Below are positions 8,536 to 58,499 of a stretch of DNA of 64,000 nucleotides, one piece after another (the first letter of the stretch is position 1; every line of letters starts with the position of its first letter). The stretch comes from Candidatus Levyibacteriota bacterium. Its GTDB lineage: Bacteria > Patescibacteriota > Microgenomatia > Levybacterales > UBA12049. The stretch lies in contig JACPLG010000005.1 of NCBI GenBank assembly GCA_016186625.1, forward strand, positions 36,954-100,953, written 5' to 3'. The position numbers and the translations under genes are program-made. The notes under the pieces are model-generated. The model made no database searches. It worked only from the letters and a program-made list of their open reading frames with translations, and was not told the DNA's origin.

Positions 8536-10070
8536 AGCCAGAATGGTTTCCCGTATTTCTGATAATTGCTTTTGGTTTTTTTCTGCGTATTTTCAAAGTA
8601 AGAGATTATATTTTGTTTTTGGGCGATGAAGGAAGAGATGCTTTAGTAGTTTATGGCATCCTTCATGGAGATTTAACGCTACTTGGTCCAACCAGCTCTG
8701 TTGGCGGATTTTTTCTAGGCCCAATTTACTACTACATGATGGCTCCTTTTATGATTCTTTCAAATTTTGATCCAGTTGGCCCCGCAATCATGGTAGTTTT
8801 GTTTGGTCTTGCCACAATTTATTTAGTTTACAGGATAGGGTATGAATTTTTTGGAAGAGGGGCAGGGCTAATTGCTAGTTTTCTTTATGCAATAAGCCCA
8901 ATTGTAATTGCCTATTCGCGCTCCTCCTGGAATCCGAATGTTTTCCCGTTTTTTACAATATCAAGTCTTTATATTTTGTATAAAGCAATTTCAAGAAATA
9001 AACTTCGACTTTTTGTATTAGCGGGAATCCTAATGGGAATTAATTTACAAATACATTATTTGGCTACTTTTGTGGGAGCAATTATGTTTTTCTATGTTTT
9101 GTTTTCAACTTTGAGTTTTCGCGCTGACACCATTGCTAATCTTCTCAAACGCTATCTTAGTCTTTTTTTCGGTTTTTTAATAGGCTTTTCTCCATTTATA
9201 GCTTTTGAACTGCGACATCAATTTGCCAATAGTCAAAATATAATTCGCTTTATTTTCAACTCCGAAGAGACAGGTGCTGGGCAACTTTTTTTTGCAAATA
9301 TTCAACATGTTTTTGCTCGACTTTTCCCAGGATTAATCTTTAGTTATCCTGATTTTTCTAAATTTTCAAAATTTGATCCATTTATACTCCAGTTATGGCT
9401 TAATCTTGCAATATTTATTGGGCTTGTTAGCACAATATTTTTCATTATTCAATTTTTGAAATCAGTAAAAACTGGGAATAAAAAATATGAATACTCACTC
9501 ATTTTTGCTTGGATGGCCTTAGGTATTGGACTCTTTGGGCTCTATAATAAATCAATATATGATTACTATCTTGGATTTCTTTTTCCAGTCCCCTTTTTGC
9601 TCGTAGGCTTGTTATTTTCAGAAATTACAAAAATTCTCAATAAGCCGGGAAAAGTTTTTGTAGCCCTGGCTTTATTTGGGCTTTTCTTTCTTAATCTCAA
9701 ATTCACCCCAATCGCTTATTTAGGAAATCGCCAAGTAGATCAGGTTAAGATGATTTCCCACTTCATTCTCTCAAAAACAGAGGGCAAGCCATTTAACTTT
9801 GCCCTTATTACCGGAGGAAATTCAGATCATGCTTACAGATATTTTATGAAGCTAGCTGGGCGAGATCCTGTGGTTATAAAAGGACTTGATGTGGATCCGC
9901 AGCGAAAATCCGCAACTGATCAGTTATTTATTGTTTGTGAGACAATACCTTGTTATCCATTGGGATATTCTCTTTGGGAGGTTGCAGGATTCGGCAGAGC
10001 GGAAATTGTGAGAGAGTGGGACGTATCAGTTCTTAAAGTTTACAAACTTGTCCATTATGAAGGCGAATAA
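8481..10070 (+). CDS. GT-C membrane glycosyltransferase (ArnT/PMT family 39/83-like)
   Basis: ~12 hydrophobic helices. Acidic DE motif (LGDEGRDALVVY) in the first extracytoplasmic loop. Sits directly downstream of a polyprenyl-phosphate sugar synthase-like GT2. Confidence 0.65.
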   Translation: MEKMAHFLSFKTPGKIRLKPEWFPVFLIIAFGFFLRIFKVRDYILFLGDEGRDALVVYGILHGDLTLLGPTSSVGGFFLGPIYYYMMAPFMILSNFDPVGPAIMVVLFGLATIYLVYRIGYEFFGRGAGLIASFLYAISPIVIAYSRSSWNPNVFPFFTISSLYILYKAISRNKLRLFVLAGILMGINLQIHYLATFVGAIMFFYVLFSTLSFRADTIANLLKRYLSLFFGFLIGFSPFIAFELRHQFANSQNIIRFIFNSEETGAGQLFFANIQHVFARLFPGLIFSYPDFSKFSKFDPFILQLWLNLAIFIGLVSTIFFIIQFLKSVKTGNKKYEYSLIFAWMALGIGLFGLYNKSIYDYYLGFLFPVPFLLVGLLFSEITKILNKPGKVFVALALFGLFFLNLKFTPIAYLGNRQVDQVKMISHFILSKTEGKPFNFALITGGNSDHAYRYFMKLAGRDPVVIKGLDVDPQRKSATDQLFIVCETIPCYPLGYSLWEVAGFGRAEIVREWDVSVLKVYKLVHYEGE

Positions 10071-10160: not shown

Positions 10161-10313
10161 CAAACAATGGAAGAAGGGAAACCTAAAAGTAAAAGAAGCC
10201 TAAGGGTTCAAAATTATCCATTATGTAATAGTTTAATAGGCGATATGCCGGGAAGCCACGACGCTTATTGCCCCAACTGTGGTTTCAAAGACCCATGTTT
10301 TAAATATTTTACC

Positions 10314-10334
10314 TTCCCACATTCCATGTGGGAA
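10314..10334. repeat. conserved hairpin repeat TTCCCACAT-TCC-ATGTGGGAA (copy 1 of 4)
   Basis: 9-bp perfect stem with a 3-nt loop. The same motif recurs at 46995-47015, 52483-52503 and 53367-53399. A 26-nt flank is shared with copy 3. Confidence 0.7.
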
Positions 10335-10449
10335 CACGATTTAACATTCACGCAATTCCTGCTCGAGCAGAATTTTTGAGGTTTACTTCTGCAAGGCGTG
10401 GCCCTGGAGAACTTGTAGTCGCTACAAAGACCCTGCTGTGAGTAGCTGC

Positions 10450-14044: not shown

Positions 14045-15387
14045 AAAATCCAAGGCTTATTTTCGCCTTTATAATTCTTCTAACACTGATATCTGCCTTT
14101 GTTAATCTTCCCGGAAATATTCGCTTATTTAATTTTGAGAGAAGCTTTAAATATAACCCGAATTATTTTCTCCAAAAATATAACTTTTCCAAGGAACTAG
14201 CTTTCCGCCAAGGTCTTGATTTAAAAGGCGGAGTTAGTATTACTTTTAAGGCGGAAGTTGAAAAGCTGCCCACAGGAGAGCGAGATAAAGCTCTTGAAAG
14301 CTCCAGGGTGGTAATTGAGCGACGAATTAATCTTTATGGAGTTTCAGAACCCCTAATTCAAACAGCAAAAGTTAATAAAGACTCTAGAATCATAGTCGAG
14401 CTTCCCGGAGTAACGGATGTTAAGGCGGCGATTAACTTAATAGGAGCAACAGCCCAGCTAACCTTTTGGGAGGAGGCGGCAACAGTCTCAGCTGAGGTTG
14501 CAACCTCATCAGCCTATCCAATTAACGCAGATATATCGGGTTTGGGGCCACTGAAACAAACAGATTTAACAGGCTCGGATCTTAGCTCATCTTCGGTTGT
14601 TTTTGATCCAAATACCGGAACACCTCAGGTTCAGCTGAAATTTAATTCCGAGGGATCAAGAAAGTTTGCTGAAATTACCAAGAGAAATGTTGGAAAACCT
14701 GTTGCGATTGTCTTGGATAATCTGGTAATAACCGCTCCAAGCGTTAATGAGGCAATTCTTACAGGAGACGCTGTAATTTCAGGCAACTTTGCCCAGGAGC
14801 AGGCAAAAGCACTAAGCACTCAGCTTAACGCAGGAGCACTTCCTATTTCTTTAAGTGTATTAGAGCAACATGTGGTAGGTCCAACCTTAGGACAGGAGTC
14901 ACTCCAAAAAAGTTTACTAGCCGGAATCATTGGTTTTATAACTATTATTGCATTTATGGTTTCTTTATATAGAAGATTGGGAGTGTTAGCCAGTATTGCT
15001 CTACTCATATATGCACTACTCAACCTTGCTGTCTTTAAAATAAGCAGTCTTACCCCGTATGGAATAACACTTACCTTGGCAGGAATCGCAGGTTTTATTC
15101 TTTCAATTGGAATGGCGGTGGACGCAAATATTCTGATTTTTGAGAGGGTTAAGGAAGAAATGCGGGCGGGAAAAGGGAGAAGCTCCTCAATTGAGCTTGG
15201 GTTTTCTCATGCTTGGACATCAATTAGGGACTCCAATGTTTCAACTCTTATCACCTGTGTGATTCTTTATACTTTTGGCACCGGAATTGTAAGAGGGTTT
15301 GCGCTTATTTTGGCAATTGGAGTATTAATTTCTATGTTTTCGGCAATAACTATAACACGAACTTTCTTAAGACTTGTTTATAAGTAA
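14041..15387 (+). CDS. secD: protein translocase subunit SecD
   Basis: N-terminal TM, periplasmic domain with GLDLKGGVSITFKA, and a C-terminal 6-TM block (LTLAGIAGFILSIGMAVDANILIFERV). Confidence 0.9.
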   Translation: MKNPRLIFAFIILLTLISAFVNLPGNIRLFNFERSFKYNPNYFLQKYNFSKELAFRQGLDLKGGVSITFKAEVEKLPTGERDKALESSRVVIERRINLYGVSEPLIQTAKVNKDSRIIVELPGVTDVKAAINLIGATAQLTFWEEAATVSAEVATSSAYPINADISGLGPLKQTDLTGSDLSSSSVVFDPNTGTPQVQLKFNSEGSRKFAEITKRNVGKPVAIVLDNLVITAPSVNEAILTGDAVISGNFAQEQAKALSTQLNAGALPISLSVLEQHVVGPTLGQESLQKSLLAGIIGFITIIAFMVSLYRRLGVLASIALLIYALLNLAVFKISSLTPYGITLTLAGIAGFILSIGMAVDANILIFERVKEEMRAGKGRSSSIELGFSHAWTSIRDSNVSTLITCVILYTFGTGIVRGFALILAIGVLISMFSAITITRTFLRLVYK

Positions 15388-34924: not shown

Positions 34925-35148
34925 ATGGTCCTAAATATTTTAAGGACAAAATCAGTATAACTTCCCCCAAAAATTCCCCTGAAAAGAAGAGTGATCAGAA
35001 AAGCTAAAGGAACTAAGATTCTGTAAGGATGGTGTCCAAGCCAAAGGCTAACTGTTGAGAAAACTTTTGAAAATGGCATATCTCTGACTATTCTCTCCTG
35101 CTCACGGGCTCTTTGTTGAAGCTTTAAAATAAATTCACCCTCGTTCAT
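34921..35148 (-). CDS. small membrane protein downstream of the ECF sigma factor (candidate anti-sigma factor)
   Basis: The listed ORF 34921..35220 overlaps the sigma-gene 3' end. The internal ATG at 35148 (MNEGEFILKLQQRAREQ...) gives a plausible 75-aa protein with one TM helix. The function is inferred from position only. Confidence 0.3.
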   Translation of the reverse strand: MNEGEFILKLQQRAREQERIVRDMPFSKVFSTVSLWLGHHPYRILVPLAFLITLLFRGIFGGSYTDFVLKIFRTI

Positions 35149-35668
35149 AAAGGATTTGGAATTGCCGCCTTGCTCTAAAAAGTAGCGATTCCGTGGCTTT
35201 AAAAGAAAGATTAAATTCAAGAGCTATTTGTTTAATAGGTATGTTATCTTCATAATGGAGTCTTAGTATCTTTCTATATTTTTCAGAAAGAGCATAGAGA
35301 GTTTTTTCAATTTTAACTCTTATCCTATTTTTTTCAAACTGGAATTCAGGCTGGTGTACCTCTTTGTCGATTATCTCAAGATAAGGAATTTGAGACAGAA
35401 GTATAGACTTTATTTTTCTCTTTCTGTAGTAATCAACCATCTTATTATGGGCAATTTTAAAAAGCCAAGCAGTTAAGTTTGAATTTCTCTGAAGAAGCTG
35501 CAGGGAATCAATTGCCTCAAGAAAAACATCATTTGTCAGATCCTCGGCGTCTTCTTTTGAAGGCAAGCGGTGAGCAAGATAATTTAAAATCTTTGGGGAG
35601 TTTGACTTATAAAATTCACTTACCGATTGGGGATCTCCGCTTTTTACCTTATCGATCAGACTTCCCAT
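35135..35668 (-). CDS. ECF-type RNA polymerase sigma-70 family factor
   Basis: Region 2 (EDAEDLTNDVFLEAI, NLTAWLFKIAHNKMVDYYRKRK) and region 4 HTH (IKQIALEFNLSFKATESLLFRARRQF). The likely start is the ATG at 35668 (MGSLIDKVKSGD). The listed ORF's 71-aa N-terminal extension runs through a GC-rich non-coding segment. Confidence 0.8.
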   Translation of the reverse strand: MGSLIDKVKSGDPQSVSEFYKSNSPKILNYLAHRLPSKEDAEDLTNDVFLEAIDSLQLLQRNSNLTAWLFKIAHNKMVDYYRKRKIKSILLSQIPYLEIIDKEVHQPEFQFEKNRIRVKIEKTLYALSEKYRKILRLHYEDNIPIKQIALEFNLSFKATESLLFRARRQFQILYERG

Positions 35669-35739
35669 AAGAAGTATTATACACAATTTTGGAGTTTTTC
35701 CGCCAGCATTTACCCTTCGCCTTTTCGATTCTATACGAA

Positions 35740-35815
35740 TACGGCTGCCTCCAGACCTGCCTGCCGGCAGGCAGGGGCGGGCAGGCATGGAGCATTGCTT
35801 GGAGGACAAGTTGGT
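35740..35815. promoter_or_regulatory. GC-rich structured segment with a perfect 20-bp palindrome CCTGCCTGCCGGCAGGCAGG (35756-35775) in the divergent sigma/HMG-CoA-reductase intergenic region
   Basis: The palindrome reads directly. Flanking CCTCCAG...CTTGGAGG complementarity extends the hairpin. A TTGACT...TATATT promoter-like pair follows at ~35833-35862. Confidence 0.5.
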
Positions 35816-35879
35816 GCGAATGATTTTTTGACTTTTTACGACTATATTAGTAAGGCTTATTGCGGCCAAAAAATCGTTC

Positions 35880-37052
35880 ATGAACTTAAGAGATTACGGA
35901 TTAGCTTCGGATAGACGAACAGTTTTAGAAAAAGAACTTAAGCTTACTCTTCCAAATATTGGCTCGTTTACCTTGGACGAAAAAATTGCAAGTTCCAGAA
36001 ATTGCGAAAACATGATTGGAGTAGCACAAGTGCCAATTGGGATTGCAGGACCGTTAAAAGTTCAAAGTTCAATCCATTCGGCAAGCTCAGGACAAGCGTT
36101 CAAAGTTCAAAGTTATTATCTGCCTTTGGCGACGACAGAGGGGGCGTTGGTGGCATCGGTTAATAGAGGATGTAAAGCAATAACAGAATCTGGAGGGGCT
36201 GTCTCATATGCGTATCGCGTTGGACAAACAAGAGGACCTGTCTTTTCAGTTAAAAACCTGGAAGAACAGAAGAAAGTTTATGACTGGATAAAAAAGAATG
36301 AAGCAAAACTAGGAAAAGTTGCAGAATCTAACTCTCAGCATTTAAAACTTTTAAGAATAAAAGTTCGGGGACTGTCAAATTACTTGTTTGTTCGATTTTA
36401 TTTTAATACGGAGGATGCCATGGGTATGAATATGGTAACAATTGCAACCCAGAAAGCGTCAGAATTAATTGAAAAAGAAACAGGAGCAAGACTTATTTCT
36501 GTTGCAGGGAATTTTGATATAGATAAAAAACCATCCTGGCTTAATTTTATAAACAATCGCGGCTTTAAAGTCTGGTCTGAGGTGGTTCTAACAAAAAAAG
36601 TTCTCAAAGATGTTCTAAAAACTAATGCTGACAAATTTTTTGAAGTATGGCTTTCCAAATGTATGATCGGATCTGCAATGTCAGGTTCGTTAGGTTTTAA
36701 CGCTCAATATGCAAATATAATTGCAGCGCTTTTTATAGCAACAGGTCAGGACCCAGCCCATGTTGCGGAGGCAAGTATGGGGATTACAACAGCAAAAGTT
36801 TTACCAAACGGAAATCTTTCAGTCTCAATTTATTTGCCTGACTTAAGCATAGGAACAGTTGGTGGGGGAACTGGACTAGCAACGCAGCAGGAAGCGCTTT
36901 CGATATTGGGTGTTGCCGGCGCAGGAAATGTCGAAAAATTCGCTGAAATTGTTGGAGCAGCAGTTTTGGCAGGAGAAATTTCATTGATATCAAGTTTGTC
37001 CGAAGGAAGTTTGGCGATTGCTCATGAGAAACTAGGGAGAGGACTGAGATAA
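35880..37052 (+). CDS. hydroxymethylglutaryl-CoA reductase, class I (archaeal/eukaryotic type)
   Basis: EDAMGMNMV motif, LATTEGALVAS, GTVGGGT and a C-terminal HxxLG. Confidence 0.85.
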   Translation: MNLRDYGLASDRRTVLEKELKLTLPNIGSFTLDEKIASSRNCENMIGVAQVPIGIAGPLKVQSSIHSASSGQAFKVQSYYLPLATTEGALVASVNRGCKAITESGGAVSYAYRVGQTRGPVFSVKNLEEQKKVYDWIKKNEAKLGKVAESNSQHLKLLRIKVRGLSNYLFVRFYFNTEDAMGMNMVTIATQKASELIEKETGARLISVAGNFDIDKKPSWLNFINNRGFKVWSEVVLTKKVLKDVLKTNADKFFEVWLSKCMIGSAMSGSLGFNAQYANIIAALFIATGQDPAHVAEASMGITTAKVLPNGNLSVSIYLPDLSIGTVGGGTGLATQQEALSILGVAGAGNVEKFAEIVGAAVLAGEISLISSLSEGSLAIAHEKLGRGLR

Positions 37053-39260: not shown

Positions 39261-39563
39261 ATGATTACAACACCGGTAAAACTTTGGAGAAGACAAAAAG
39301 AAGTAGCCAGACATTTAGGACGGGAAGGTAAAATAATTTCTTGGACAATTATTAGAGTTCCTCCAAAAGCCTTTCTCAATGAAACACCCTATCCTGTTGT
39401 GATAGTTAAGATGGAAAATGGAGAAAAAATGATTGGACAGCTTGTAGACTGGCAAGATGAAGATTTGGCAGTTGGCAGAAAAGTCGTGGCAGTACTAAGA
39501 CGCTTGTTTTCAGGCGATAGCGAGAGTATAATTGCCTACTATATTAAGTTTAGGCCTATATGA
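39261..39563 (+). CDS. DUF35 OB-fold/zinc-ribbon-like scaffold protein of the thiolase-HMGS complex
   Basis: ~100-aa protein directly after the thiolase, as in archaeal thiolase/HMGS/DUF35 operons. Has the KMENGEKMIGQLVDW OB-like segment. Confidence 0.65.
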   Translation: MITTPVKLWRRQKEVARHLGREGKIISWTIIRVPPKAFLNETPYPVVIVKMENGEKMIGQLVDWQDEDLAVGRKVVAVLRRLFSGDSESIIAYYIKFRPI

Positions 39564-40615
39564 AGAGTATAAGAATCTCTGCCCCCGGGAAGCTACATTT
39601 ACTTGGAGAACATGTTGTTGTCTATAACAAGCCGGCAATTCTTGCAGCGGTTGATAAAAGATGTTTTGTAGAAATAACTCCTAGAAAAGATAAGAAAATT
39701 AAAGTATTGTCTCGAAATTACAATACTTCGACACTACGTCGTATCGAAGAAATTGTCGAAAAGTTTGAGAAAGCCCAAAAAGACTGGGAAACTTATAATG
39801 AAAATAATGACGTTTCTCTTTTGAAATCAATTACCAAGGACCCACTGGATTATCCTCAAGCAATAGTCGGACAATTTTTAAATTATTATAAAATAAAGAA
39901 AGTTGAAGGATTTGATTTAGTTATTGATTCACAGATTCCTGTTGGGTCCGGAATGGGATCATCTGGTGCTTTGTCTGTTTCAATAATCGGAGCATTGTCT
40001 TTGTTTGCGGGTAAACCTTTTAATAAAAAGATAATTAACGAAATTGCATTTTTGGCAGAGCAAAAGAAACATGGCAAGCCTTCAGGGGGAGATAATTCAA
40101 CAAGCTGCTATGGAAAATTAGTCTGGTTTAAAAAAGACGAGGGGATAAAACCATTAGGTTTTGGAGTTTCAGAAAAGATTTCAAAGAATTTCTATGTTAT
40201 AAACACAGGCACGCCTAAAGAGACAACTGGGGAGATGGTGAGTCGAGTTCGCGATCTATTCTCAAAACGAGAATTATTTGTCCAGGAGATTCTGGATAGA
40301 CAGGAAGAACTGGTAAAAGATTTGAAATTGGCTCTTGAAAAAAATATTCCGAGACAAGTTCCAGGTATTATAAAAAACGGAGAAAGAAATCTCCAAAAAT
40401 TAGGAGTTGTCTCGCCTTTTGTTCGGGGTTTAATCAGAAAAATAGAGGAAAGCGGTGGAGCTGCTAAAATCTGCGGAGGGGGAGGAAAAACCAAAGCAAC
40501 AGGAATAATTTTGATTTATCACACTGACTTGCAAAATCTTAAAAAAGTGCTACAATCCCACAATCTAAATCCAACTCAGCTTACATTGGGAGTTGAAGGA
40601 TTAAGAAAAGAATAA
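39560..40615 (+). CDS. mvk: mevalonate kinase (GHMP kinase)
   Basis: SAPGKLHLLGEHVVVYNKPAI N-terminus and GHMP motif PVGSGMGSSGALSV. Confidence 0.8.
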   Translation: MKSIRISAPGKLHLLGEHVVVYNKPAILAAVDKRCFVEITPRKDKKIKVLSRNYNTSTLRRIEEIVEKFEKAQKDWETYNENNDVSLLKSITKDPLDYPQAIVGQFLNYYKIKKVEGFDLVIDSQIPVGSGMGSSGALSVSIIGALSLFAGKPFNKKIINEIAFLAEQKKHGKPSGGDNSTSCYGKLVWFKKDEGIKPLGFGVSEKISKNFYVINTGTPKETTGEMVSRVRDLFSKRELFVQEILDRQEELVKDLKLALEKNIPRQVPGIIKNGERNLQKLGVVSPFVRGLIRKIEESGGAAKICGGGGKTKATGIILIYHTDLQNLKKVLQSHNLNPTQLTLGVEGLRKE

Positions 40616-40616
40616 T

Positions 40617-41699
40617 ATGACAGTTACTGAACAAGTAGACAGGAGAGGCCCAAGTGGTCCGAAATTTCATGATGAATCTTTAATGCCAGTTACGATGGGT
40701 ACTCCTTATCGTGTTCCAGATTATGCTTATCCGAATTGGGGCTTGGTGTATGAAGGAGAAGAAAAAGCTACTGCCGCATACAGAGCTGAGTGGGCAGAGG
40801 GTAACAAAGATCAACTTGGCTTAGTAACGAGAGCAATAGTAGAAGCGGGTTATGGAAATTTTCCTGCGCTTCTTAGGGAATCTGCCGCAAGAGCTATTAG
40901 GGAATTAGTTACATACAGAGGAGAGTCAGTTAAAATTCTTGATATTGGGGCAGGGCCAGGAACATCTGCGGATGAAGTATATGAAGCCTTAGATTCCGTA
41001 ACGCGAAGCCACACAGATATGTATCTTGTGGATCCTTCTCCAGATAGTCTTGTTGATGCAAAAGTACGCTTAGAAGGAAAAGGAAGATTTAATTTCTTTC
41101 TTCAGGGTTCAGACAGCGATATGTTACCCAATATAGATTCAAACACATTTGATGTAGTTTTGGGTGTGGCGTCAGTTCATCATCACGCTAAAATACCTTT
41201 TGAAGAATACAATCGCGTTCTTAAGCCGGGGGGATTTTTAGTTTTAGCAGATTGGCATCAGCCCTTATGGGAGCACCCGGGATCAGTTTTTGATTTTCTA
41301 GAGCAAATAGATTGGCCAAGAAAAGAAGAAGGATTAGATAATTGGCTGAGGGTTTACCCAAAGGCAGTCAATATGCCGCCACCTCCACGTAACCCTGCTG
41401 ATAGACAAGCTATAATCGAAATTACGGAGTTTTGGAAAGCATATCAAAGAATTTCTAGGGAGGCGAATCTAGGTCCAAATGCAATATGGCCGCTTGAAGG
41501 ACATAGGCCAGTAGCAAGATATGTAAAGGCAATGAAAGAAGCCGGATTCGATCTTGAAACTCCAGATATTGATAGGCTAATTAGGAATGGTGTTATTTCT
41601 CGAAATCCGCATCAAATTCTTCCAGACTCAAGTCTTTTACAGCTTTCTGTTGCACAAAAACCAAGAGATCATGAACGTACAGCAAGAATCGCAGCCTAG
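40617..41699 (+). CDS. class I SAM-dependent methyltransferase, embedded in the mevalonate operon
   Basis: Motif I ILDIGAGPGTSADEV, acidic motif II (MYLVDPSPD) and post-I VLKPGGFLVLADW. Has ~95-aa N-terminal and ~140-aa C-terminal extensions. GC is higher than the flanking genes. Confidence 0.7.
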   Translation: MTVTEQVDRRGPSGPKFHDESLMPVTMGTPYRVPDYAYPNWGLVYEGEEKATAAYRAEWAEGNKDQLGLVTRAIVEAGYGNFPALLRESAARAIRELVTYRGESVKILDIGAGPGTSADEVYEALDSVTRSHTDMYLVDPSPDSLVDAKVRLEGKGRFNFFLQGSDSDMLPNIDSNTFDVVLGVASVHHHAKIPFEEYNRVLKPGGFLVLADWHQPLWEHPGSVFDFLEQIDWPRKEEGLDNWLRVYPKAVNMPPPPRNPADRQAIIEITEFWKAYQRISREANLGPNAIWPLEGHRPVARYVKAMKEAGFDLETPDIDRLIRNGVISRNPHQILPDSSLLQLSVAQKPRDHERTARIAA

Positions 41700-41716
41700 A
41701 ATAAAACAGCTAAAAT

Positions 41717-42808
41717 ATGAGCGCTCCTGTTGAAAGAAGCCAAAGAACTTTACAGAGAAATATGGATCTGTTGATGCGATATCACGTAGCACAATCAGGC
41801 GGAGAAGTTTCAGAAGCGCATAGCCCAACGCATCTCAGAACTACTGCTAGACTTACTGAATTAGGAGGAATTTTGTATGGATTCTCTCCAAGAGAATTTG
41901 ATCTAGCTCACTTTGCAGGAGATTTCCATGATCTGGTTAGGTCACCAAGCGAAGACCCGAGTCTAAAAGATGAGGAAGTTAGCGCCAGACAAGCCGTGCT
42001 AATAATGGAGATGATGAGCGATAGAGGAGTTTTTGCCACTGATTCTCAGGAAAGAGAAGCAGTTAGATTTGCTATTAAAAATCAGGGAAAAGCTCCAATT
42101 TCTTTCCTGGACGGTTCCACAAGAGATGAGGTACCGCAGGATTTGGGTGATAGAATCCATGCAGCACTGTTTATTGCAGATAAAATTGAAGCAAATGGAG
42201 CAAGAGTAATCGCCAGAAGATCGAGTTTTGTAGCGGGAGATAGGCTTCATAATCCAGATGGTGATTGGCAAAAATTTGGTTTTGTTCCGGATAAAGACGA
42301 GGCATTAGTTGTGGCCATTGAGAGTTTGCTCAGACTTGGAATAATAAATCCTCAATATATTTATCCTGGAAAAATAAGGAGAATTATAGACCCATTGTAT
42401 GAGGTTCAAAGAGAATTTGTTAAAGGAGTATTTAAAGCAAAAGGACTTAAAGTAGGAGATGCGGCAAAGCTACTTTTAGAAAGAAAAAGGGATGATGGTA
42501 AAAACATGCTAGAAGCGAGGAAATTATCTGCTCCTGACAACGTTGAGGAGCTTGTCGCTTTTTTGCAAGAAAAAACAGGAATTACAGATGATGCAATTGA
42601 ATCAACAACGGAAGATGTTGCCAATTCGGCTATAGAAACAGTACTTTATTTCAGCAGAGACTATAAAGCAGATTTGGATAGACTGATAGCTGATTGGCTA
42701 CCAAGAGGAGAATCGGCTGAGCGATGGCAACGTCAAATGGTGGAGTATGCAGAAGGAAACTGGTTTAAGCAGGCAAGAGAACAAATTTCTTCTGATACAA
42801 TAAGTTAA
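41717..42808 (+). CDS. HD-domain metal-dependent phosphohydrolase-like protein with a C-terminal extension
   Basis: The His...HD...D pattern (HSPTHL ... HFAGDFHDLVR ... D) is visible in the first 150 aa. The remainder has no recognisable motif. Confidence 0.5.
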   Translation: MSAPVERSQRTLQRNMDLLMRYHVAQSGGEVSEAHSPTHLRTTARLTELGGILYGFSPREFDLAHFAGDFHDLVRSPSEDPSLKDEEVSARQAVLIMEMMSDRGVFATDSQEREAVRFAIKNQGKAPISFLDGSTRDEVPQDLGDRIHAALFIADKIEANGARVIARRSSFVAGDRLHNPDGDWQKFGFVPDKDEALVVAIESLLRLGIINPQYIYPGKIRRIIDPLYEVQREFVKGVFKAKGLKVGDAAKLLLERKRDDGKNMLEARKLSAPDNVEELVAFLQEKTGITDDAIESTTEDVANSAIETVLYFSRDYKADLDRLIADWLPRGESAERWQRQMVEYAEGNWFKQAREQISSDTIS

Positions 42809-43780
42809 GTGAATAAAATAACTGTTTCGGCGCCGGGGAAGTTGATGCTATATGGTGAGCACGCTGTTGTCTATAACCACCCGTGTTTGGTTACCGCAGT
42901 TGACCAGAGAATTCGTTTAACCGCAGAAGTCTTGGAAAGTTCGAACTTCGAACTTGAGGCAAGTGATGTTAAAGTCTCAAATTATAAAAAACCATTAAAT
43001 AAATTAGGAAAAGGGGATATTCCAAAAGGTGCGCAGTTTGTTGAGATAGCGGTAAAAAATACTGCAGAGCAGTACTCAATAAAAAATAAAGGATTAAGAA
43101 TAACTACGAGTTCAGAGTTTTCTTCTAAGTTTGGATTTGGATCATCAAGTGCTTCAACAGTCTGTACTGTTTTTGCACTCTCGAAATTATTTGGTCTGAA
43201 ACTTTCCAAGAAGCAATTGTTCGATATCGCATATAAAACAGTTTTGGACATTCAAGGAAAAGGATCTGGATTTGATGTGGCAGCAGCGGTCTTTGGCGGA
43301 ACAGTTTATTTTGTAACCGGTGGAAAAAAGATTGAGCCATTAAACATCGATAGTCTACCATTGATCGTTGGATACAGTGGAATAAAGGCAGATACTGTAA
43401 CTCTAATTAATCAAGTAAAAGAAAAGTTTGCTGATAATCAAAAAAGACTCGATGAGATATACAATGAGATTGATCGACTTGTTGAGAAAGTAAAACCAAA
43501 AGTTATTAATAAAAGTTGGAAAGCTGTTGGGACAGCTATGTCATCTAACCAAAAACTTCTTAAAGAGCTTGGAGTAAGCATTAAGAAGCTCGACAAAATG
43601 ATTGAAGGTGCAATAAAAGCTGGAGCGTATGGCGCAAAATTATCTGGAGCAGGCGGAGGAGATTGTATGATTGCACTTTCGCCAGAAAAAGTCCGTTCAA
43701 AAGTTGAAAAAGCTATCGAAAAAGCTGGAGGAGAAGTCATCAAAATTACCACAAACGCAGAAGGTGTTAGAATAGAATAA
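42809..43780 (+). CDS. GHMP kinase; candidate phosphomevalonate kinase (or second mevalonate-family kinase)
   Basis: SAPGKLMLYGEHAVVYNHP N-terminus and GHMP motif FGFGSSSASTV. Sits between mvk and the decarboxylase gene. Confidence 0.6.
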   Translation: MNKITVSAPGKLMLYGEHAVVYNHPCLVTAVDQRIRLTAEVLESSNFELEASDVKVSNYKKPLNKLGKGDIPKGAQFVEIAVKNTAEQYSIKNKGLRITTSSEFSSKFGFGSSSASTVCTVFALSKLFGLKLSKKQLFDIAYKTVLDIQGKGSGFDVAAAVFGGTVYFVTGGKKIEPLNIDSLPLIVGYSGIKADTVTLINQVKEKFADNQKRLDEIYNEIDRLVEKVKPKVINKSWKAVGTAMSSNQKLLKELGVSIKKLDKMIEGAIKAGAYGAKLSGAGGGDCMIALSPEKVRSKVEKAIEKAGGEVIKITTNAEGVRIE

Positions 43781-43782
43781 TA

Positions 43783-44745
43783 ATGAAAGCTACAGCTCAG
43801 ACGCCCTCTAATATAGCATTTGTTAAGTATTGGGGAAGGAAGGACGAAGAATTAAGGCTTCCAGAAAATGGAAGTATTTCCATGAATCTTTCAGGGCTTG
43901 TAACAACTACAACTGTTGAGTTTAGCGATAAGTTCGAGCAAGATGAAATTATTATAAATAGCGTCAAAGAAGATTTAGAAAATAATAGGGCAGTAAAACA
44001 CTTAGACAGAGTTCGATCGCTGGCAAAAATAAACTTAAAAGCAAAAGTTAATACTTCAAATAATTTTCCAACGGGAACCGGCCTTTCCTCATCAGCATCA
44101 GGTTTTGCAGCTCTTACTGTGGCCGCGGCTTCAGCGGCCGGTTTAAAATTATCAGAAAAGGATCTTTCGATATTAGCAAGACAAGGATCAGGATCTGCCT
44201 GCCGTTCAATTCCTGACGGATTTGTTGAGTGGTTGGATGGAGACTCAAGCGATACATCCTATGCTGTTTCCATTTTCCCTCCAGACTACCTTGATATTGT
44301 AGATGTGGTGGTAGTTGTATCAACAGAGAAAAAATTTCTGGCAACTTCTGAAGGACAAAAAACTGCCAGAACCAGCCCCTTTTTTGAAACCAGACTTAAT
44401 TTGATCAGAAATAAAATAAATCGAGTAAAAAAAGCCATCGAGGATAAAAACTTTTCAGAATTCGGAGAATTGATTGAAAGGGAAGCCTTAGAGTTTCACT
44501 CAATTCTGTTTACTTCTGCCCCCCCGTTGTTTTATTGGACACCAGAGACAGTTAAAATTATGAAGTACGTTCAGGCCCTAAGAAGAGAAGGATTGGAATG
44601 TTATTTTACGATTAATACCGGCCAGGATGTCCATGTTATTTGCAAGAAAGAAGACTCAGAAAATGTTTCAAAAAAACTTTCAGAAATTCCGGAAGTTCGA
44701 AATACGATTATTAATTTCCCATCCCCCGGCGCCCATTTGGTTTAA
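43783..44745 (+). CDS. diphosphomevalonate (or phosphomevalonate) decarboxylase, MVD family
   Basis: NIAFVKYWGRKDEELRLPENGSISMNL N-terminus, and a GTGLSSSASGFAAL GHMP-like P-loop. Confidence 0.8.
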   Translation: MKATAQTPSNIAFVKYWGRKDEELRLPENGSISMNLSGLVTTTTVEFSDKFEQDEIIINSVKEDLENNRAVKHLDRVRSLAKINLKAKVNTSNNFPTGTGLSSSASGFAALTVAAASAAGLKLSEKDLSILARQGSGSACRSIPDGFVEWLDGDSSDTSYAVSIFPPDYLDIVDVVVVVSTEKKFLATSEGQKTARTSPFFETRLNLIRNKINRVKKAIEDKNFSEFGELIEREALEFHSILFTSAPPLFYWTPETVKIMKYVQALRREGLECYFTINTGQDVHVICKKEDSENVSKKLSEIPEVRNTIINFPSPGAHLV

Positions 44746-44748
44746 TTG

Positions 44749-45804
44749 TCACATTGTATACGTGAGAAGGGCCATGGTGTTGTTTTCGTGTACCCCAAGC
44801 CCGTCGATTGCATAATATCTTTTTTTCTTTTTCATATTTTCCATGTTCGATATTATAAAACCTTTAGTATAGCTTTCGATTACTCCCGGGTGGATATAAT
44901 ATTTTCTACAAGTTGCCGGTCGATTCCTAAGAAAGTTTGCTACTTCTTTAACTGTTGCTACAATATTTTCTTTTGCGAAATTTTCCTCTTCGGTTATTCC
45001 AAGTTTGTTAAAGCGAATCGCAGCCAAGACTGTCCCGCCCCAAGTCCTGAAGTCTTTTGCGGTAATATCTTCTCCTGTAATTTCTCTTAAATATTCATTA
45101 ACATCATATGAATCAATCGTTTGAATTTGCCCATTTTCATCAAAATATTGGAAAAGATCCTGTCCTGGAATATCTTTAATACGCCTTAGAATTCTGGCAA
45201 CTTTTTTATTTCTTATACTTACCTTGTGATAGACTCCGCTTTTGCCTTTAAACTGGAAAACTACTTTATCAGTGGAATTTACTCTTCCGTGTCTTTTTTG
45301 AAGAGTAGTCAGGCCAAATGAATTATTATCTTCAGCATATTCTTCATTACCAACCCTGATTAGTGTATTTTCAAGCAGCCAAACAACTGTTGCAAGGACT
45401 ATCTCTCGTGTAAGCTTACCTTCCTCCATGTCGTAGCGCACTTTATTTCTTATTTTTGGAAGATGGCGGGCAAAATCCATAATGTGGGTAAATTTTTCTC
45501 CCTGGCTCATTTTTAGGTAGAGCGGATGATAGCGGTATTGTTTTCTTCCTCTTTTGTCATATCCAGTTGCCTGAATGTGGCCATTTGAGTAGGGAGCAAT
45601 CCAGACGTTTTTGTACGCAGGGGGAATCATTAGTTTGTTTATCCGATCAATTGTTGCCTGGTCGGTTATCCTTTTTCCGTCGGTATTAAAATAAACAAAT
45701 TTGTCCCCGATTATTTTGCGTGAGTAGCCGGGCAATTCAACCTTGCTATAGCGAAGACTTACACCTTTTAAGATGTCTTCCGTAGCCATAACCCGATTAT
45801 ACAC
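44749..45804 (-). CDS. DNA topoisomerase IB (bacterial/poxvirus type)
   Basis: N-terminal ELPGYSRKIIGDKFVYFNTDGKRI...YKNVWIAPYSNGHIQATGYDKRGRKQYRYHP resembles the TopIB core. Length ~350 aa. Confidence 0.75.
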   Translation of the reverse strand: MYNRVMATEDILKGVSLRYSKVELPGYSRKIIGDKFVYFNTDGKRITDQATIDRINKLMIPPAYKNVWIAPYSNGHIQATGYDKRGRKQYRYHPLYLKMSQGEKFTHIMDFARHLPKIRNKVRYDMEEGKLTREIVLATVVWLLENTLIRVGNEEYAEDNNSFGLTTLQKRHGRVNSTDKVVFQFKGKSGVYHKVSIRNKKVARILRRIKDIPGQDLFQYFDENGQIQTIDSYDVNEYLREITGEDITAKDFRTWGGTVLAAIRFNKLGITEEENFAKENIVATVKEVANFLRNRPATCRKYYIHPGVIESYTKGFIISNMENMKKKKRYYAIDGLGVHENNTMALLTYTM

Positions 45805-45813
45805 AATTTCAAA

Positions 45814-46893
45814 TTATAAACGTACGAGCGCTGCTGTCCAGGTAAGACCGGCGCCATAACCGACCAGCAGTCCAATATCTCCCGCCTGAATTTTCCCTTC
45901 TGCCAAACCGTCTTGTAAATCAAAAGGGATTGAAGCGGAAGAAGTGTTGCCATACTTAAGTATTCCGCGGCCATAGTGTCTAGCATTTCCAATTCCAAAC
46001 GTTCCAAGCCCATCAACCATACGAATACTCGCCTGATGATGTAGTACAAAAGTAGCGAGCTCTATATCAACTTCCGGCCCAAGCAGTTCCGCAATATTAG
46101 CTTTATTGATTCTTCCAAAATATCGTTTTAATTCCGGTCCTACCATTTCAAATTGATCTGCGTACGGAGGCCGCCTTACTGTTAGATATGTATCATCCTC
46201 GTGATAATTCGGCGTTCTCATTCTTAACAACCCTTCAGTATCTTTTTCATGTTGTACTGTGGACGCTTCAACCATCAGATCTTCTCCGTAAGTAAATTGC
46301 ATAGCTATTGCCCTATCAGATAAGATTAAACGCGATTTAGAACTGTCTTCTTCTGGCGGCGGGAGAGTCCGGCGATAACCTGTTTCATCCACAACTATAA
46401 GCACACTTTGTCCTTTCGGATCTTTTTGCCGGAGCCAGTCAAGCGCAACAACGAAGCCTGAGCATGCAGTCGAAACTGTATGGGTATTTTGTAAATTTGC
46501 CGGCGCTAAGGGTTTTTCTAAACCTAATTCTGTGACGTTGGCAATAAGGCTTTCTCTTACTTGATTTGCTCTTTGCTGCTTGTCCGGATTATCTGGATCA
46601 AACGGAGGCAAATGGCTTGCACTGACTATCATAATATCAGGTGTTTGCCCTGTCCTTTTTACTAAAGCTTTTGCTACTTTTTCTGCAGCAGAAGCAGATT
46701 CTTCTTCGGTTGCTTCATGTAAAACTGAGGGGCCAAGCTTAGTACGAAAGTCGTAATCAGGAAGTAAGCCAAACTCCGCTAAATACGCGGCATCAATTAT
46801 AATTCTTTCTGTTGGAGTAAATCGTTCAAATTGTATGCCTTGAACTGGTAGTCCAAGCCGTTCCCTTATTTCAGCTACTGTTTCAGCGCCCAT
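45814..46893 (-). CDS. 3-oxoacyl-ACP synthase III (FabH)-like thiolase-fold condensing enzyme; GC-rich relative to flanks
   Basis: Catalytic Cys (VSTACSGFVVAL), His (HHQAS) and Asn (GNTSSASIP), with a C-terminal GYGAGLTWTAALVRL. The N-terminal third is atypical for FabH. Confidence 0.65.
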   Translation of the reverse strand: MGAETVAEIRERLGLPVQGIQFERFTPTERIIIDAAYLAEFGLLPDYDFRTKLGPSVLHEATEEESASAAEKVAKALVKRTGQTPDIMIVSASHLPPFDPDNPDKQQRANQVRESLIANVTELGLEKPLAPANLQNTHTVSTACSGFVVALDWLRQKDPKGQSVLIVVDETGYRRTLPPPEEDSSKSRLILSDRAIAMQFTYGEDLMVEASTVQHEKDTEGLLRMRTPNYHEDDTYLTVRRPPYADQFEMVGPELKRYFGRINKANIAELLGPEVDIELATFVLHHQASIRMVDGLGTFGIGNARHYGRGILKYGNTSSASIPFDLQDGLAEGKIQAGDIGLLVGYGAGLTWTAALVRL

Positions 46894-46994
46894 GAACTAA
46901 TATAGTACCATCTAATTGCAACTGAATTTTTGTTAGATAGATACTCTGATATAATTGCCCCATTTTTTGGCTGAATAACCTGAGAAAATCTTGC

Positions 46995-47015
46995 TTCCCA
47001 CATTCCAAGTGGGAA
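46995..47015. repeat. conserved hairpin repeat, copy 2 (TTCCCAC-ATTCCAA-GTGGGAA)
   Basis: Same stem as copies 1, 3 and 4. Lies in the divergent intergenic region. Confidence 0.6.
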
Positions 47016-47044
47016 AGCAGAGTAGATGATTCATCAATGTATTC

Positions 47045-47080
47045 TAGCACAGTTTTCCGCTCGAGCGGAAAACTGTGCTA
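47045..47080. promoter_or_regulatory. 36-bp perfect palindrome TAGCACAGTTTTCCGCTC|GAGCGGAAAACTGTGCTA
   Basis: The 18-bp arms are exact reverse complements around a CTCGAG centre. Lies 80 bp upstream of the 47160 gene and ~150 bp upstream of the divergent KAS-III-like gene. Confidence 0.7.
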
Positions 47081-47139
47081 ATTTCCTAACCCCTTAATAT
47101 AAACATTAAAGTTTAAGATTTTGTCTTCGTAGCATAACG

Positions 47140-47156
47140 TCTTCTGCTATAATTGC
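47140..47156 (+). promoter_or_regulatory. promoter TCTTCTGCTATAATTGC (extended -10 TGcTATAAT); TATAAT ends 6 nt before the ATG, predicting a leaderless mRNA
   Basis: TATAAT at 47148-47153, start codon at 47160. The same 17-mer is repeated at 47613-47629. Confidence 0.55.
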
Positions 47157-47159
47157 GAC

Positions 47160-47612
47160 ATGAAGAATAAGCAAAAACTTTTAAAGTATCTTAAGAGCAG
47201 AGATTTGATGATTTTGGCAACGAATGGGCCAACCGCCTCAACGTTTTATTATGGAATAGATGATGATTTTAATTTCTACATTGTAACTTCTCCAAATTCT
47301 GAACATGCAAAGAATTTTATCAAAAATCCCAATGTCGCTTGCGTGATTACTGATACAAATCAAAAAATGTTTGAAACCAAAAATAAAAGCGGAGTCCAGA
47401 TTAAAGGAGTGGTTAAACAAGTTTCGAGTGGTCAACTTAAAAAAGCGCTTAATGTTTGGGCTCATGCAAATAAAGAAATGGCAGAAAAGTTTTTTAAAAA
47501 TATCAGTGAGGGAAAATGGAAAGACAAAGTTTATCTAATTAAACCAAGAGAAATTAAATGGTTTAATGAAAAGCTTTACGGAGAACAAGGGACAGAAACA
47601 TTTAGATTCTAA
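47160..47612 (+). CDS. pyridoxamine 5'-phosphate oxidase-like FMN-binding split-barrel protein (general stress protein 26-like)
   Basis: LKSRDLMILATNGPTASTFYYGIDDDFNFYIVTSPNSEHAKNFIKNPNVA pattern typical of the PNPOx-like fold. Confidence 0.6.
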   Translation: MKNKQKLLKYLKSRDLMILATNGPTASTFYYGIDDDFNFYIVTSPNSEHAKNFIKNPNVACVITDTNQKMFETKNKSGVQIKGVVKQVSSGQLKKALNVWAHANKEMAEKFFKNISEGKWKDKVYLIKPREIKWFNEKLYGEQGTETFRF

Positions 47613-47629
47613 TCTTCTGCTATAATTGC
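47613..47629 (+). promoter_or_regulatory. second copy of the TCTTCTGCTATAATTGC promoter, directly after the stop of the PNPOx-like gene; would drive a ~160-nt leader or small RNA ahead of the HAD gene
   Basis: Exact 17-nt direct repeat of 47140-47156. The leader contains the palindromic hairpin TTTGACACTACGTCGTGTCGAAG (47638-47660). Confidence 0.5.
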
Positions 47630-47794
47630 TCCCATTTCTTTGACACTACGTCGTGTCGAAGTTTTTGACACATTATTAGAATCTAACACTTTAGGTTCAC
47701 GCCCTTGGGGTGTAAAGCTATAGAGCACGCCAGAAATTGACAGTGCTGGTCAATTCCAGAAAAACTTCCTAAAGTGTTATAATTAGCTCGTTTT

Positions 47795-52482: not shown

Positions 52483-52503
52483 TTCCCACATTCCATGTGG
52501 GAA
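52483..52503. repeat. conserved hairpin repeat, copy 3 (TTCCCACAT-TCC-ATGTGGGAA)
   Basis: Identical over 26 nt to copy 1, including the flanking GGGAACAC. Lies just after the thermonuclease stop. Confidence 0.7.
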
Positions 52504-53366: not shown

Positions 53367-53399
53367 TTTGAGTTCCCACTTTCCATGTGGGAACTCAAA
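53367..53399. repeat. conserved hairpin repeat, copy 4, extended to a 13-bp stem (TTTGAGTTCCCAC-TTTCCAT-GTGGGAACTCAAA) between convergent genes
   Basis: Perfect 13-bp stem read directly. Overlaps the nth stop codon region. Confidence 0.7.
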
Positions 53400-58043: not shown

Positions 58044-58421
58044 TTGGAAGGTATCAAGGGTACCACATGTATCAGAAGTATCACGGGGAGAACTGTTCGA
58101 GTGTTGACAAACTTATCAATTTGTGGCATTAATTAGTTAATGGCTAAAAGAAAGGTAAGAAGATCAACTCATCACAAAGTAACTTGGGCCGGATTTTCCA
58201 CATCCCAGCTCATAATTATATTCACAATCTTTATCCTTTTCGTCATCTTCTACTTGATGTAGATTTGCAGTTTATACCCCTGACCGGATTGAAATCGATG
58301 TGCGAAGCTATTCCACATCGGAAGTGGAATAGGTATGCGCATCGGGAAAGTTTAGATTTGTTTTGAGGTTTAATTTGAGGTAAGATAGGCACAGGCCGCC
58401 ATCGCCCGCCGGCCAAAGCGA

Positions 58422-58495
58422 GGCCCCATCGTCTAGTGGTTTAGGATATCTGGTTCTCATCCAGAAGATCAGGGGTTCGAATCCCCTTGGGGCTA
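58422..58495 (+). tRNA. tRNA-Glu (anticodon CUC)
   Basis: GGCCCCA-TC-GTC-TAGTGGTTTAG-GAT-A-TCTGG-TTCTCAT-CCAGA-AGATC-AGGGG-TTCGAAT-CCCCT-TGGGGCT-A, 74 nt. Close to E. coli tRNA-Glu. No encoded CCA. Confidence 0.75.
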
Positions 58496-58499
58496 CAGA

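Follow-up and report, generated by a model that had tools for sequence, protein, structure and literature searches.

A stretch of 64,000 nt from a Candidatus Levyibacteriota bacterium (contig JACPLG010000005.1, positions 36,954 to 100,953 of the forward strand; here called the window, to which all coordinates refer) contains a gap of 266 bp between a KAS-III-C-domain gene (45814–46893, minus strand) and a PNPOx-like gene (47160–47612, plus strand), and in this gap lies a perfect palindrome, TAGCACAGTTTTCCGCTC|GAGCGGAAAACTGTGCTA, with arms of 18 + 18, no spacer, and CTCGAG in the middle. A preliminary description of the window had reported this exact inverted repeat correctly, and had proposed that it is a repressor operator in a divergent promoter region or a cruciform-forming site. 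The palindrome exists, is conserved, keeps its pairing through symmetric changes, is independent of the genes on either side, and is placed downstream of a promoter or a stop codon. Features of the locus are listed in Table 1.

Table 1 Features of the palindrome locus and of a decayed paralog in the window. L numbers denote contigs.
Feature	Position	Strand	Remarks
36-bp perfect palindrome (18 + 18, CTCGAG center)	47045–47080	strandless	Central long hairpin of the module
P1, predicted consensus extended −10 promoter, TGaTATAATTGC	46947–46958	+	The same TATAATTGCCCCA opens the modules of L022/L026 and L023/L039
hp1, hairpin-family copy 2, core TTCCCAC-ATTCCAA-GTGGGAA plus extended bulged stem	46990–47020	+	
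Conserved 3′ module tail, from palindrome to PNPOx promoter	47081–47144	+	Within the 221-nt block shared with L022 at 85%
P2, leaderless promoter of the PNPOx-like gene, TGcTATAATTGC	47145–47156	+	ATG at 47160
TATATT, −10 hexamer of the leaderless KAS-III-like gene	46899–46904	−	ATG at 46893 (minus strand)
hp3-like hairpin, TTCACGCCCTTGGGGTGTAAAGCT	47696–47719	+	Here beyond the PNPOx gene
Decayed module paralog: promoter remnant ATTGCCCCA, hp1 copy 1 (10314–10334), 12-bp palindrome	10267–10375	+	

The palindrome and its surroundings

The 36 bp are the longest perfect palindrome of the window, followed by palindromes of 20 bp (at 35756) and 16 bp (at 14493), and cannot be extended, the next outward pair being C/A. 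The longest arm across 200 mononucleotide shuffles of the window was 12, against 18 observed, which bears out the earlier statement that such a palindrome is rare by chance; in the DNA examined, perfect palindromes of at least 20 bp occur roughly once per 100–200 kb. The outer part is AT-rich and the inner part GC-rich. One intact copy is present in the 64 kb, and one per locus across ~195 kb of related DNA. A genome search for the half-site had been suggested: no second copy exists in the window at up to three mismatches (0.05 expected), and a further 22-mer at up to five mismatches was found in the ~195 kb of related DNA at chance level only. CTCGAG occurs three times in the 64 kb (10362, 47060, 52218); this is not significantly below the expected 7.6 ± 2.6, and avoidance of this hexamer was rejected; two of the three sites are centers of palindromes that lie after hp1 copies. 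The second-longest palindrome, CCTGCCTGCCGGCAGGCAGG (35756–35775), is GC-rich and lies within the 5′ part of an open reading frame (ORF; 35135–35881, minus strand), near the divergent start of another (35880–37052, plus strand).

Both flanking genes are leaderless, since a −10 hexamer lies 5–6 nt before the ATG in each case, as had been described for the PNPOx-like gene. Distances given earlier were approximately right: the palindrome is 29 nt from the core end of hp1 (47015) and 24 nt from its extended stem, 67 nt from the −10 hexamer of the PNPOx promoter (47148–47153; 60–80 bp claimed), and 151 nt from the KAS-III-like start (46893; ~150 bp claimed). A third consensus promoter, P1, was absent from the preliminary description; it points into hp1 and the palindrome, and is near-identical to P2 and to a further copy at 47618–47629. 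P1 is followed by A, not ATG, so that a non-coding transcript is predicted from ~46963 through hp1 and then the palindrome. Relative to the PNPOx, KAS-III-like, and predicted P1 starts, the center of the palindrome (47062.5) is at about −97, −169, and +100, respectively. The module was found to contain no conserved ORF, start, or hydrophobic peptide, and a small ORF or type I toxin was rejected on these grounds.

The 12-bp palindrome of the decayed paralog, CTGCTCGAGCAG (10359–10370), lies 24 nt past hp1 copy 1 and is also CTCGAG-centered; nhmmer matched the paralog to model positions 11–65 (E = 0.0024). In the window a whole gene intervenes between the palindrome and the hp3 homolog, which in L023/L039 and L020 lies 13–14 nt after the palindrome.

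Conservation of the module in related genomes

Metagenome contigs were scanned for the inner 20-mer of the palindrome, and 13 contigs were found. One module is that of L022 (Rifle aquifer, Levybacteria-like), which aligns to window positions 46950–47165 with 85% identity over 221 nt, from the first promoter to the first codons past the second promoter. Its flanking genes differ from those of the window: a hydrolase-like ORF lies upstream, an unknown 168-aa protein and a LigT-like protein are encoded downstream. The palindrome of L022, TAGCACAATTTTCCGCTCGAGCGGAAAATTGTGCTA, differs from that of the window by a single symmetric change, G>A on one side and C>T on the opposite side, and eight assemblies agree on this locus (L022/L026–L033). 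The module is absent from L034, which holds an 82% ortholog of the downstream gene of L022 and is its nearest relative.

Two further lineages have versions of 38–40 bp. That of 38 bp, CTAGAACAATTTTCCGCTCGAGCGGAAAATTGTTCTAG, is found in L023/L013/L039–L042, in the order promoter, hp1, variable linker, palindrome, and hp3; L020 has a 40-bp version with the same hairpin order and a degenerate promoter. Gene contexts differ once more, the L023 group having a DUF433/DUF5615 pair and a convergent MFS gene, L020 a convergent tRNA gene. The tRNA and hp1 flanks of L035–L037 are near-identical to those of L020, with other DNA replacing the palindrome and hp3 segment; a 102-aa ORF stands in place of the palindrome in L035 (4790–5180, compared with L020, 1250–1500). 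The linker between hp1 and palindrome is 24–65 nt across members.

Orthologous intergenic regions were compared, as had also been proposed earlier. The palindrome is conserved in related genomes, so that the lack of conservation named beforehand as counting against the site does not apply; it is absent from all PNPOx orthologs (L006–L010; 69–83% identity), which stand behind other genes with short spacers. Two of these palindrome-free orthologs (L006, L007) retain P2 and the leaderless start. The KAS-III-like gene has a best homolog of 51% identity anywhere and a nearest relative of 43% in the genomes of species of the Genome Taxonomy Database (GTDB), and the latter value makes an orthologous comparison through that gene impossible.

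The exact 36-mer had no match in the GTDB species genomes, viral contig and phage collections gave no matches to the palindrome, and a plasmid collection gave chance-level matches only (upstream of E. coli fimZ; Sinorhizobium). Rfam 15, at permissive E-values, returned only sub-threshold noise of microRNA-type hairpins. Literature on leaderless and palindrome themes in the candidate phyla radiation (CPR) and on non-coding RNA of Levybacteria yielded nothing; by sequence string, the sole match was a paper with a 16-nt sub-string (TTCCGCTCGAGCGGAA), taken as a short-hairpin RNA oligonucleotide.

Substitutions and folding

Nine distinct versions of the palindrome show three independent substitutions, each symmetric in both arms: G-C to A-T at ±11 (window versus L022), C-G to A-T at ±15 (L022 versus L023/L020), and C-G to A-T at ±3, beside the loop (L016/L044 versus L043). 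A fourth symmetric change, at ±5 (C>T/G>A), is seen in the decayed copy at 10.3 kb. One-sided changes are absent from the inner 22 bp; a 1-nt deletion in L011 and unpaired bases lie outside the core. Symmetric-only change argues for a constraint on base pairing, not for two independently read protein half-sites; the same pattern is expected of a quasi-palindrome that undergoes self-templated correction.

Computed folding energies of the palindrome are −26.6 kcal/mol for RNA (z = −7.9) and −18.3 kcal/mol for DNA, so that the hairpin or cruciform suggested earlier is energetically feasible; the predicted module fold is also strong (z = −7.2 and −8.0). The stem is followed by AATTTCC and has no U-tract, a T-run precedes it, and a pattern scan for canonical terminators made no call. 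Sites with a hairpin plus U-tract numbered 21 in 20 kb, against 15.9 ± 3.7 expected; as they are not enriched, other 3′-end signals are plausible.

The core sequence in other lineages

The remaining matches to the 20-mer are palindromes of 22–28 bp, (TG)AATTTTCCGCTCGAGCGGAAAATT(CA), with the core ATTTTCCG-NTCGAN-CGGAAAAT. Their hosts are marine Candidatus Latescibacterota (as judged by names of neighboring proteins) and a lineage of 41% GC (L015, L017, L018). In L015/L017, L016, L018, L019, L043, and L044 an unrelated gene ends at the core, its stop codon lying directly beside the core or within the stem; genes that end there encode an acetyl-xylan-esterase-like protein (AXE1), an M20 peptidase, PGI, and a TPR protein. 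The core lies ~50 nt downstream of AroK/AroB in L021 and ~90 nt downstream of the esterase gene in L012. A relation to SECIS elements was rejected, the stop codon being TAA as often as TGA.

Orthologous Latescibacterota loci keep the core while the flanks change, with AXE1 neighbors falling within one 90%-identity protein cluster. L012 has an insertion of 90 nt at the left edge of the palindrome (8906–8996), and L043 (11886–12700) and L044 (3388–4200) have a pair to its right that is toxin–antitoxin-like, judged by ORF sizes and sequence. Such indels and cassettes point either to a recombination hot spot or to long palindromes provoking local rearrangement. The center of L043 is GATCGATC, compared with GCTCGAGC elsewhere, a symmetric double change in the loop-closing pair.

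Flanks of the CPR modules and of the Latescibacterota and 41%-GC loci have no significant similarity, the 24-mer alone being common; a flank likeness seen by eye, "TAACCCTT", was rejected as not significant (all z ≤ 2.5). By composition, the 20-mer is expected less than once in the metagenome collection. A few chance identities are conceivable, because palindromes of at least 20 bp arise at the rate given above and only 4^10 arm sequences exist. Against pure coincidence speak the recurrence of the core, which each of the three lineages holds at no fewer than two loci, and the next two A-T pairs, which are common to all members. The sharing of the 24-mer between lineages is not taken as proven homology.

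Assembly evidence

Three Logan contigs from two SRA runs (L001–L003) each open with 30 nt, AGTTTTCCGCTCGAGCGGAAAACTGTGCTA, continue into the left or the right flank, and carry exactly the flanking genes of the window. These 30 nt at contig starts from two runs mean that independent reads hold the palindrome, at which the k = 31 graph is interrupted. At least five independent assemblies of another genome (L022 type) show left and right flank joined in the same way in the orthologous module. L032 opens with a fold-back copy (reverse complement) of its own right flank, L033 opens within a few bases of the palindrome, and L045 ends inside it. The fold-back of L032 is an assembler artifact caused by the palindrome, not the cause of the palindrome. 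Short-read assemblies thus break at, or fold back through, the palindrome, which is a hazard for the contiguity of metagenome-assembled genomes, for their curation, and for chimeric joins. A library-linker artifact (CCGCTCGAGCGG is an XhoI linker sequence) was ruled out by the recurrence of both flanks across projects and by the length variation and symmetric substitutions of the element.

Promoters, hairpin families, and neighboring genes

Successive genes of related contigs are preceded by the motif (c)TGcTATAATTGCcNc-ATG, with six copies in 2.9 kb of L022, which identifies it as the consensus leaderless promoter of the lineage. A near-identical promoter, (c)TTCTGcTATAATTGCcNc, is found at 46947–46958, 47145–47156, and 47618–47629 of the window and in L006, L008–L010, L022, and L023; in related Levybacteria-like contigs it precedes most genes, with the ATG directly after it. 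In the window, 16 of the 58 genes have a −10 hexamer 4–9 nt before the start codon, and leaderless expression from one stereotyped promoter seems, from these sequences, to be the rule in the lineage. Identical promoters of 17–20 bp that bracket units differing between genomes may also be recombination substrates. A gene cassette, suggested by the 17-bp direct repeat that brackets the PNPOx gene, was rejected, the repeat being the consensus promoter found before most genes. The copy at 47618–47629 directly follows the PNPOx stop; ~5 nt past its predicted start comes a canonical terminator hairpin, CTTTGACACTACGTCGTGTCGAAG, and then T5 (47618–47667). A copy of this hairpin with 22 of 24 positions identical lies inside a GHMP-kinase ORF (39726–39749).

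Hairpins of the family TTCCCAC-(ATTCCAT/ATTCCAA)-GTGGGAA, to which hp1 belongs, are found on the plus strand at 10314–10334, 46995–47015, 52483–52503, and 53373–53393, and in L013/L023/L039, L020, L022/L026, and L035, in the last of which the hairpin is kept though the palindrome is absent. Copies 3 and 4 lie 15–17 nt past stop codons, copy 4 as a perfect 13-bp stem between convergent genes; no family member has a U-tract. The family looks like a lineage-specific RNA 3′-end hairpin. In L022 and L020, hp1 has T·G pairs that are able to pair on the plus strand only, and hp3 also carries such pairs, which indicates that both are constrained at the RNA level of the plus-strand transcript. An imperfect 24 + 24 inverted repeat (58296–58344), whose TTCCAC...GTGGAA core resembles hp1, lies ~80 nt upstream of tRNA-Glu (58422–58496).

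No DNA-binding regulator is found among the 18 ORFs of 39.5–54.9 kb (2 of the 18 have no Pfam match), in agreement with the earlier remark that none is adjacent. These ORFs include mevalonate-pathway kinases, MVD, topoisomerase IB, HAD, RmlC, CorA, Nramp, nucleases, and a glycosylase. The mevalonate-pathway cluster (39560–46893) comprises two GHMP kinases, a third GHMP-type kinase (42809–43780), and MVD (43783–44745), and adjoins a bacterial type IB topoisomerase (44749–45804, minus strand) and the KAS-III-C-domain gene; in this context the latter may be a condensing enzyme of the pathway rather than FabH.

Discussion

We tentatively prefer to read the palindrome as a hairpin that acts in either orientation, as a transcript-end or insulator element between individually promoted units. 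It would form the middle stem-loop of a short non-coding module between genes, led by a promoter and ordered as P1, hp1, the 36-bp palindrome, the conserved tail, and the promoter of the next gene, and would most likely act by intrastrand base pairing after transcription. RNA from either strand would form the same hairpin of 16–18 bp, and for this reason the element would serve in both orientations; it could be a factor-independent "I-shaped" terminator or insulator, or a hairpin that stabilizes or processes 3′ ends, and would separate neighboring transcription units that are mostly leaderless. We infer that the palindrome is transcribed, that RNA rather than DNA is the active hairpin, and that its effect is termination, insulation, or stabilization.

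Placement is consistent with this reading. The palindrome lies 100–130 nt downstream of a consensus promoter in the window, L022/L026, and L023/L039, downstream of a convergent tRNA gene in L020, and opposite a convergent MFS gene in L039. A stable hairpin past a transcription unit with compensatory pairing is what a hairpin-only 3′ end calls for, and both are observed. The reading is also favored by the RNA-level constraint on the neighboring hairpins hp1 and hp3 and by the high stability of the hairpin. Since a perfect palindrome folds alike on both strands, a need for it in both directions could explain why G·U pairs are missing. CPR bacteria have tiny genomes and few regulators, and in this lineage a near-identical leaderless promoter stands before many genes; a conserved hairpin without a U-tract that works in either orientation would be a candidate insulator of neighboring units.

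Several points weigh against the transcript-end hairpin. No member has a U-tract after the stem, and the T-run on the 5′ side and A-run on the 3′ side reverse the canonical order; the activity of P1 and the 3′-end positions are predictions. An RNA hairpin needs neither a self-complementary loop nor the absence of G·U pairs, so that symmetry at the DNA level requires an extra assumption, either use on both strands or self-templated correction. Template switching in quasi-palindromes can yield symmetric changes by mutation, without selection on RNA. The position of hp1 between P1 and the palindrome is a further difficulty: if hp1 terminates, little transcription reaches the palindrome. Nor does a purely structural role explain why the same 24 nt occur in three unrelated lineages.

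A rival reading is a selfish or self-maintaining palindromic repeat at the DNA level (like repetitive extragenic palindromes [REP] or miniature inverted-repeat transposable elements [MITE], or a quasi-palindrome kept by template switching), gained and lost in intergenic hot spots, without a dedicated regulatory role and with incidental effects on transcripts; we consider it rather unlikely. Presence and absence at orthologous sites (L034 versus L022; L035–L037 versus L020) are as expected of such repeats: the element is sporadic among close relatives, is lacking upstream of the 82% ortholog in L034, is replaced by other DNA in L035–L037, and is missing from the PNPOx orthologs. The same module has other neighbors in L022 than in the window, a decayed second copy lies at 10.3 kb, indels and cassettes adjoin the palindrome in L012, L043, and L044, the core recurs at no fewer than two loci in each of the three lineages, and template-switch correction is expected to yield symmetric changes. 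Against a mobile repeat stand the low copy number (one intact and one decayed in the 64 kb; one per locus in the ~195 kb), the failure to find terminal inverted repeats with a target-site duplication, the sole flanking direct repeat being the consensus promoter of the lineage, and the lack of a transposase (RAYT-type, IS200/IS605) among annotated neighbors at any locus. The palindrome has moreover been kept perfect across species-level divergence (flanks 85%), whereas long perfect palindromes are usually unstable.

A trans-acting small RNA (sRNA) of ~120–190 nt, transcribed from P1 and made of hp1, the palindrome as main stem, and hp3 or tail, with the duplex as recognition element for RNase III or a protein, appears improbable. 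Such an RNA would fit the module's own consensus promoter and conserved start context TATAATTGCCCCA in three lineages, the isolation of the unit in L039 and L020, where no co-directional gene lies downstream, the missing conserved ORF together with the strong predicted fold, the RNA-type G·U pairs of hp1 and hp3, and the 85% identity over 221 nt between different flanking genes. It fits poorly with the absence of an Rfam match, the variable linker, the degenerate P1 of L020, and the gene that separates hp3 from the palindrome in the window. None of hp1, hp3, and P1 accompanies the palindrome in Latescibacterota and the 41%-GC lineage, and the nearest relatives lack the palindrome, which is hence dispensable.

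The recurrence of the core also allows a doubtful extension, namely that the 24 bp, AATTTTCCG-NTCGAN-CGGAAAATT, are a sequence-specific hairpin element of Levybacteria, marine Latescibacterota, and the 41%-GC lineage that marks junctions of cassette exchange, being either a minimal mobile palindrome spread horizontally or a folded hairpin recognized by a conserved factor such as a structure- and sequence-specific nuclease, a recombinase, or an RNA-binding protein. If the 24-nt palindrome in Latescibacterota is more than coincidence, it would point to a sequence-specific hairpin element not described so far.

Still less probable is a DNA site for a symmetric protein, be it an operator of the divergent promoters bound by one dimer or, in the manner of QacR, by two, or a recombinase-type site of 11-6-11. 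The dyad is perfect over 18 + 18 and has a self-complementary center, for which an RNA hairpin has no need, the 24-bp core is common to three unrelated lineages in sequence and not just in structure, a formal parse ACAATTTTCCG-CTCGAG-CGGAAAATTGT can be made, and 28–36 bp is the size of sites for paired dimers (QacR IR1). The operator of the preliminary description is nevertheless not supported for the PNPOx or the KAS-III-like promoter. Measured from the three predicted starts, the center falls outside the range of about −60 to +20; the palindrome travels with neither a flanking gene nor a cognate regulator, and across 10 contexts is associated with no gene family; no solitary half-site was found in the 64 kb, and no second operator-like copy above chance level in the ~195 kb; all three substitutions, including that at ±3 beside the center, change both arms together; and in most contexts outside CPR bacteria the core abuts stop codons at gene 3′ ends, not promoters. 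As to a site for a tyrosine recombinase, no integrase or Xer gene is found at any locus, presence varies among relatives, and the central region is symmetric, unlike that of dif or lox. Resemblances to CIRCE (TAGCAC...GTGCTAA, wrong spacing), CodY, and ARG boxes, and to Noc and ParB sites, N15 telRL, difSL, and attC were rejected on spacing or sequence.

Chance or an assembly artifact is effectively refuted: assemblers are indeed led astray by perfect palindromes, Logan contigs end within this one, and the ENA contigs L032 and L033 start with a folded-back right flank and at the palindrome edge, respectively, but no shuffle of 200 gave an arm above 12, the same flank join is recovered by independent projects and assemblers, and orthologs are conserved with compensatory changes.

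Comparison with known systems

Sites of the dif type that are served by a single recombinase (XerH/difH, XerS/difSL, archaeal XerA/dif) resemble the palindrome in that it can be parsed into 11-bp inverted arms and a 6-bp center, is of low copy, and is intergenic; it differs in its symmetric center, in having no similarity to known dif arms and no adjacent recombinase gene, in occurring in more than one copy per lineage, and in being missing from close relatives. QacR IR1 is a 28-bp operator of paired dimers with the center GATCGATC. Operators of this type share with the palindrome a length of 28–36 bp, an AT-rich outside and GC-rich inside, and a self-complementary central tetranucleotide, which in the L043 variant is that of IR1 itself; unlike them, the palindrome overlaps no promoter, has no regulator gene nearby and no linked regulated gene, stands at 3′ ends in other lineages, and changes symmetrically.

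Repeats of the REP/BIME, ERIC, Correia, and RUP types can carry promoters and affect mRNA ends. Like these, the palindrome is non-coding, intergenic or stop-abutting, hairpin-forming, and polymorphic in presence, and has a decayed copy; unlike these, it is of very low copy in the DNA examined, is perfect rather than imperfect, and shows no terminal inverted repeats, target duplication, or cognate transposase.

Hairpin-only, "I-shaped" terminators and stabilizing stem-loops of 3′ untranslated regions have been described for mycobacteria and other taxa. The palindrome departs from I-shaped terminators in being perfect at the DNA level, with a self-complementary loop and no G·U pairs, in its 5′ T-run and 3′ A-run, in the unusual length of its stem (16–18 bp), and in the recurrence of its 24-nt sequence in unrelated phyla, and termination by it is here an inference. 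It agrees with them and with the 3′ stem-loops in being a stable, GC-cored stem-loop situated 0–90 nt from stop codons or past a promoter, for which the identity of the neighboring genes is irrelevant and in which pairing is kept by compensatory changes.

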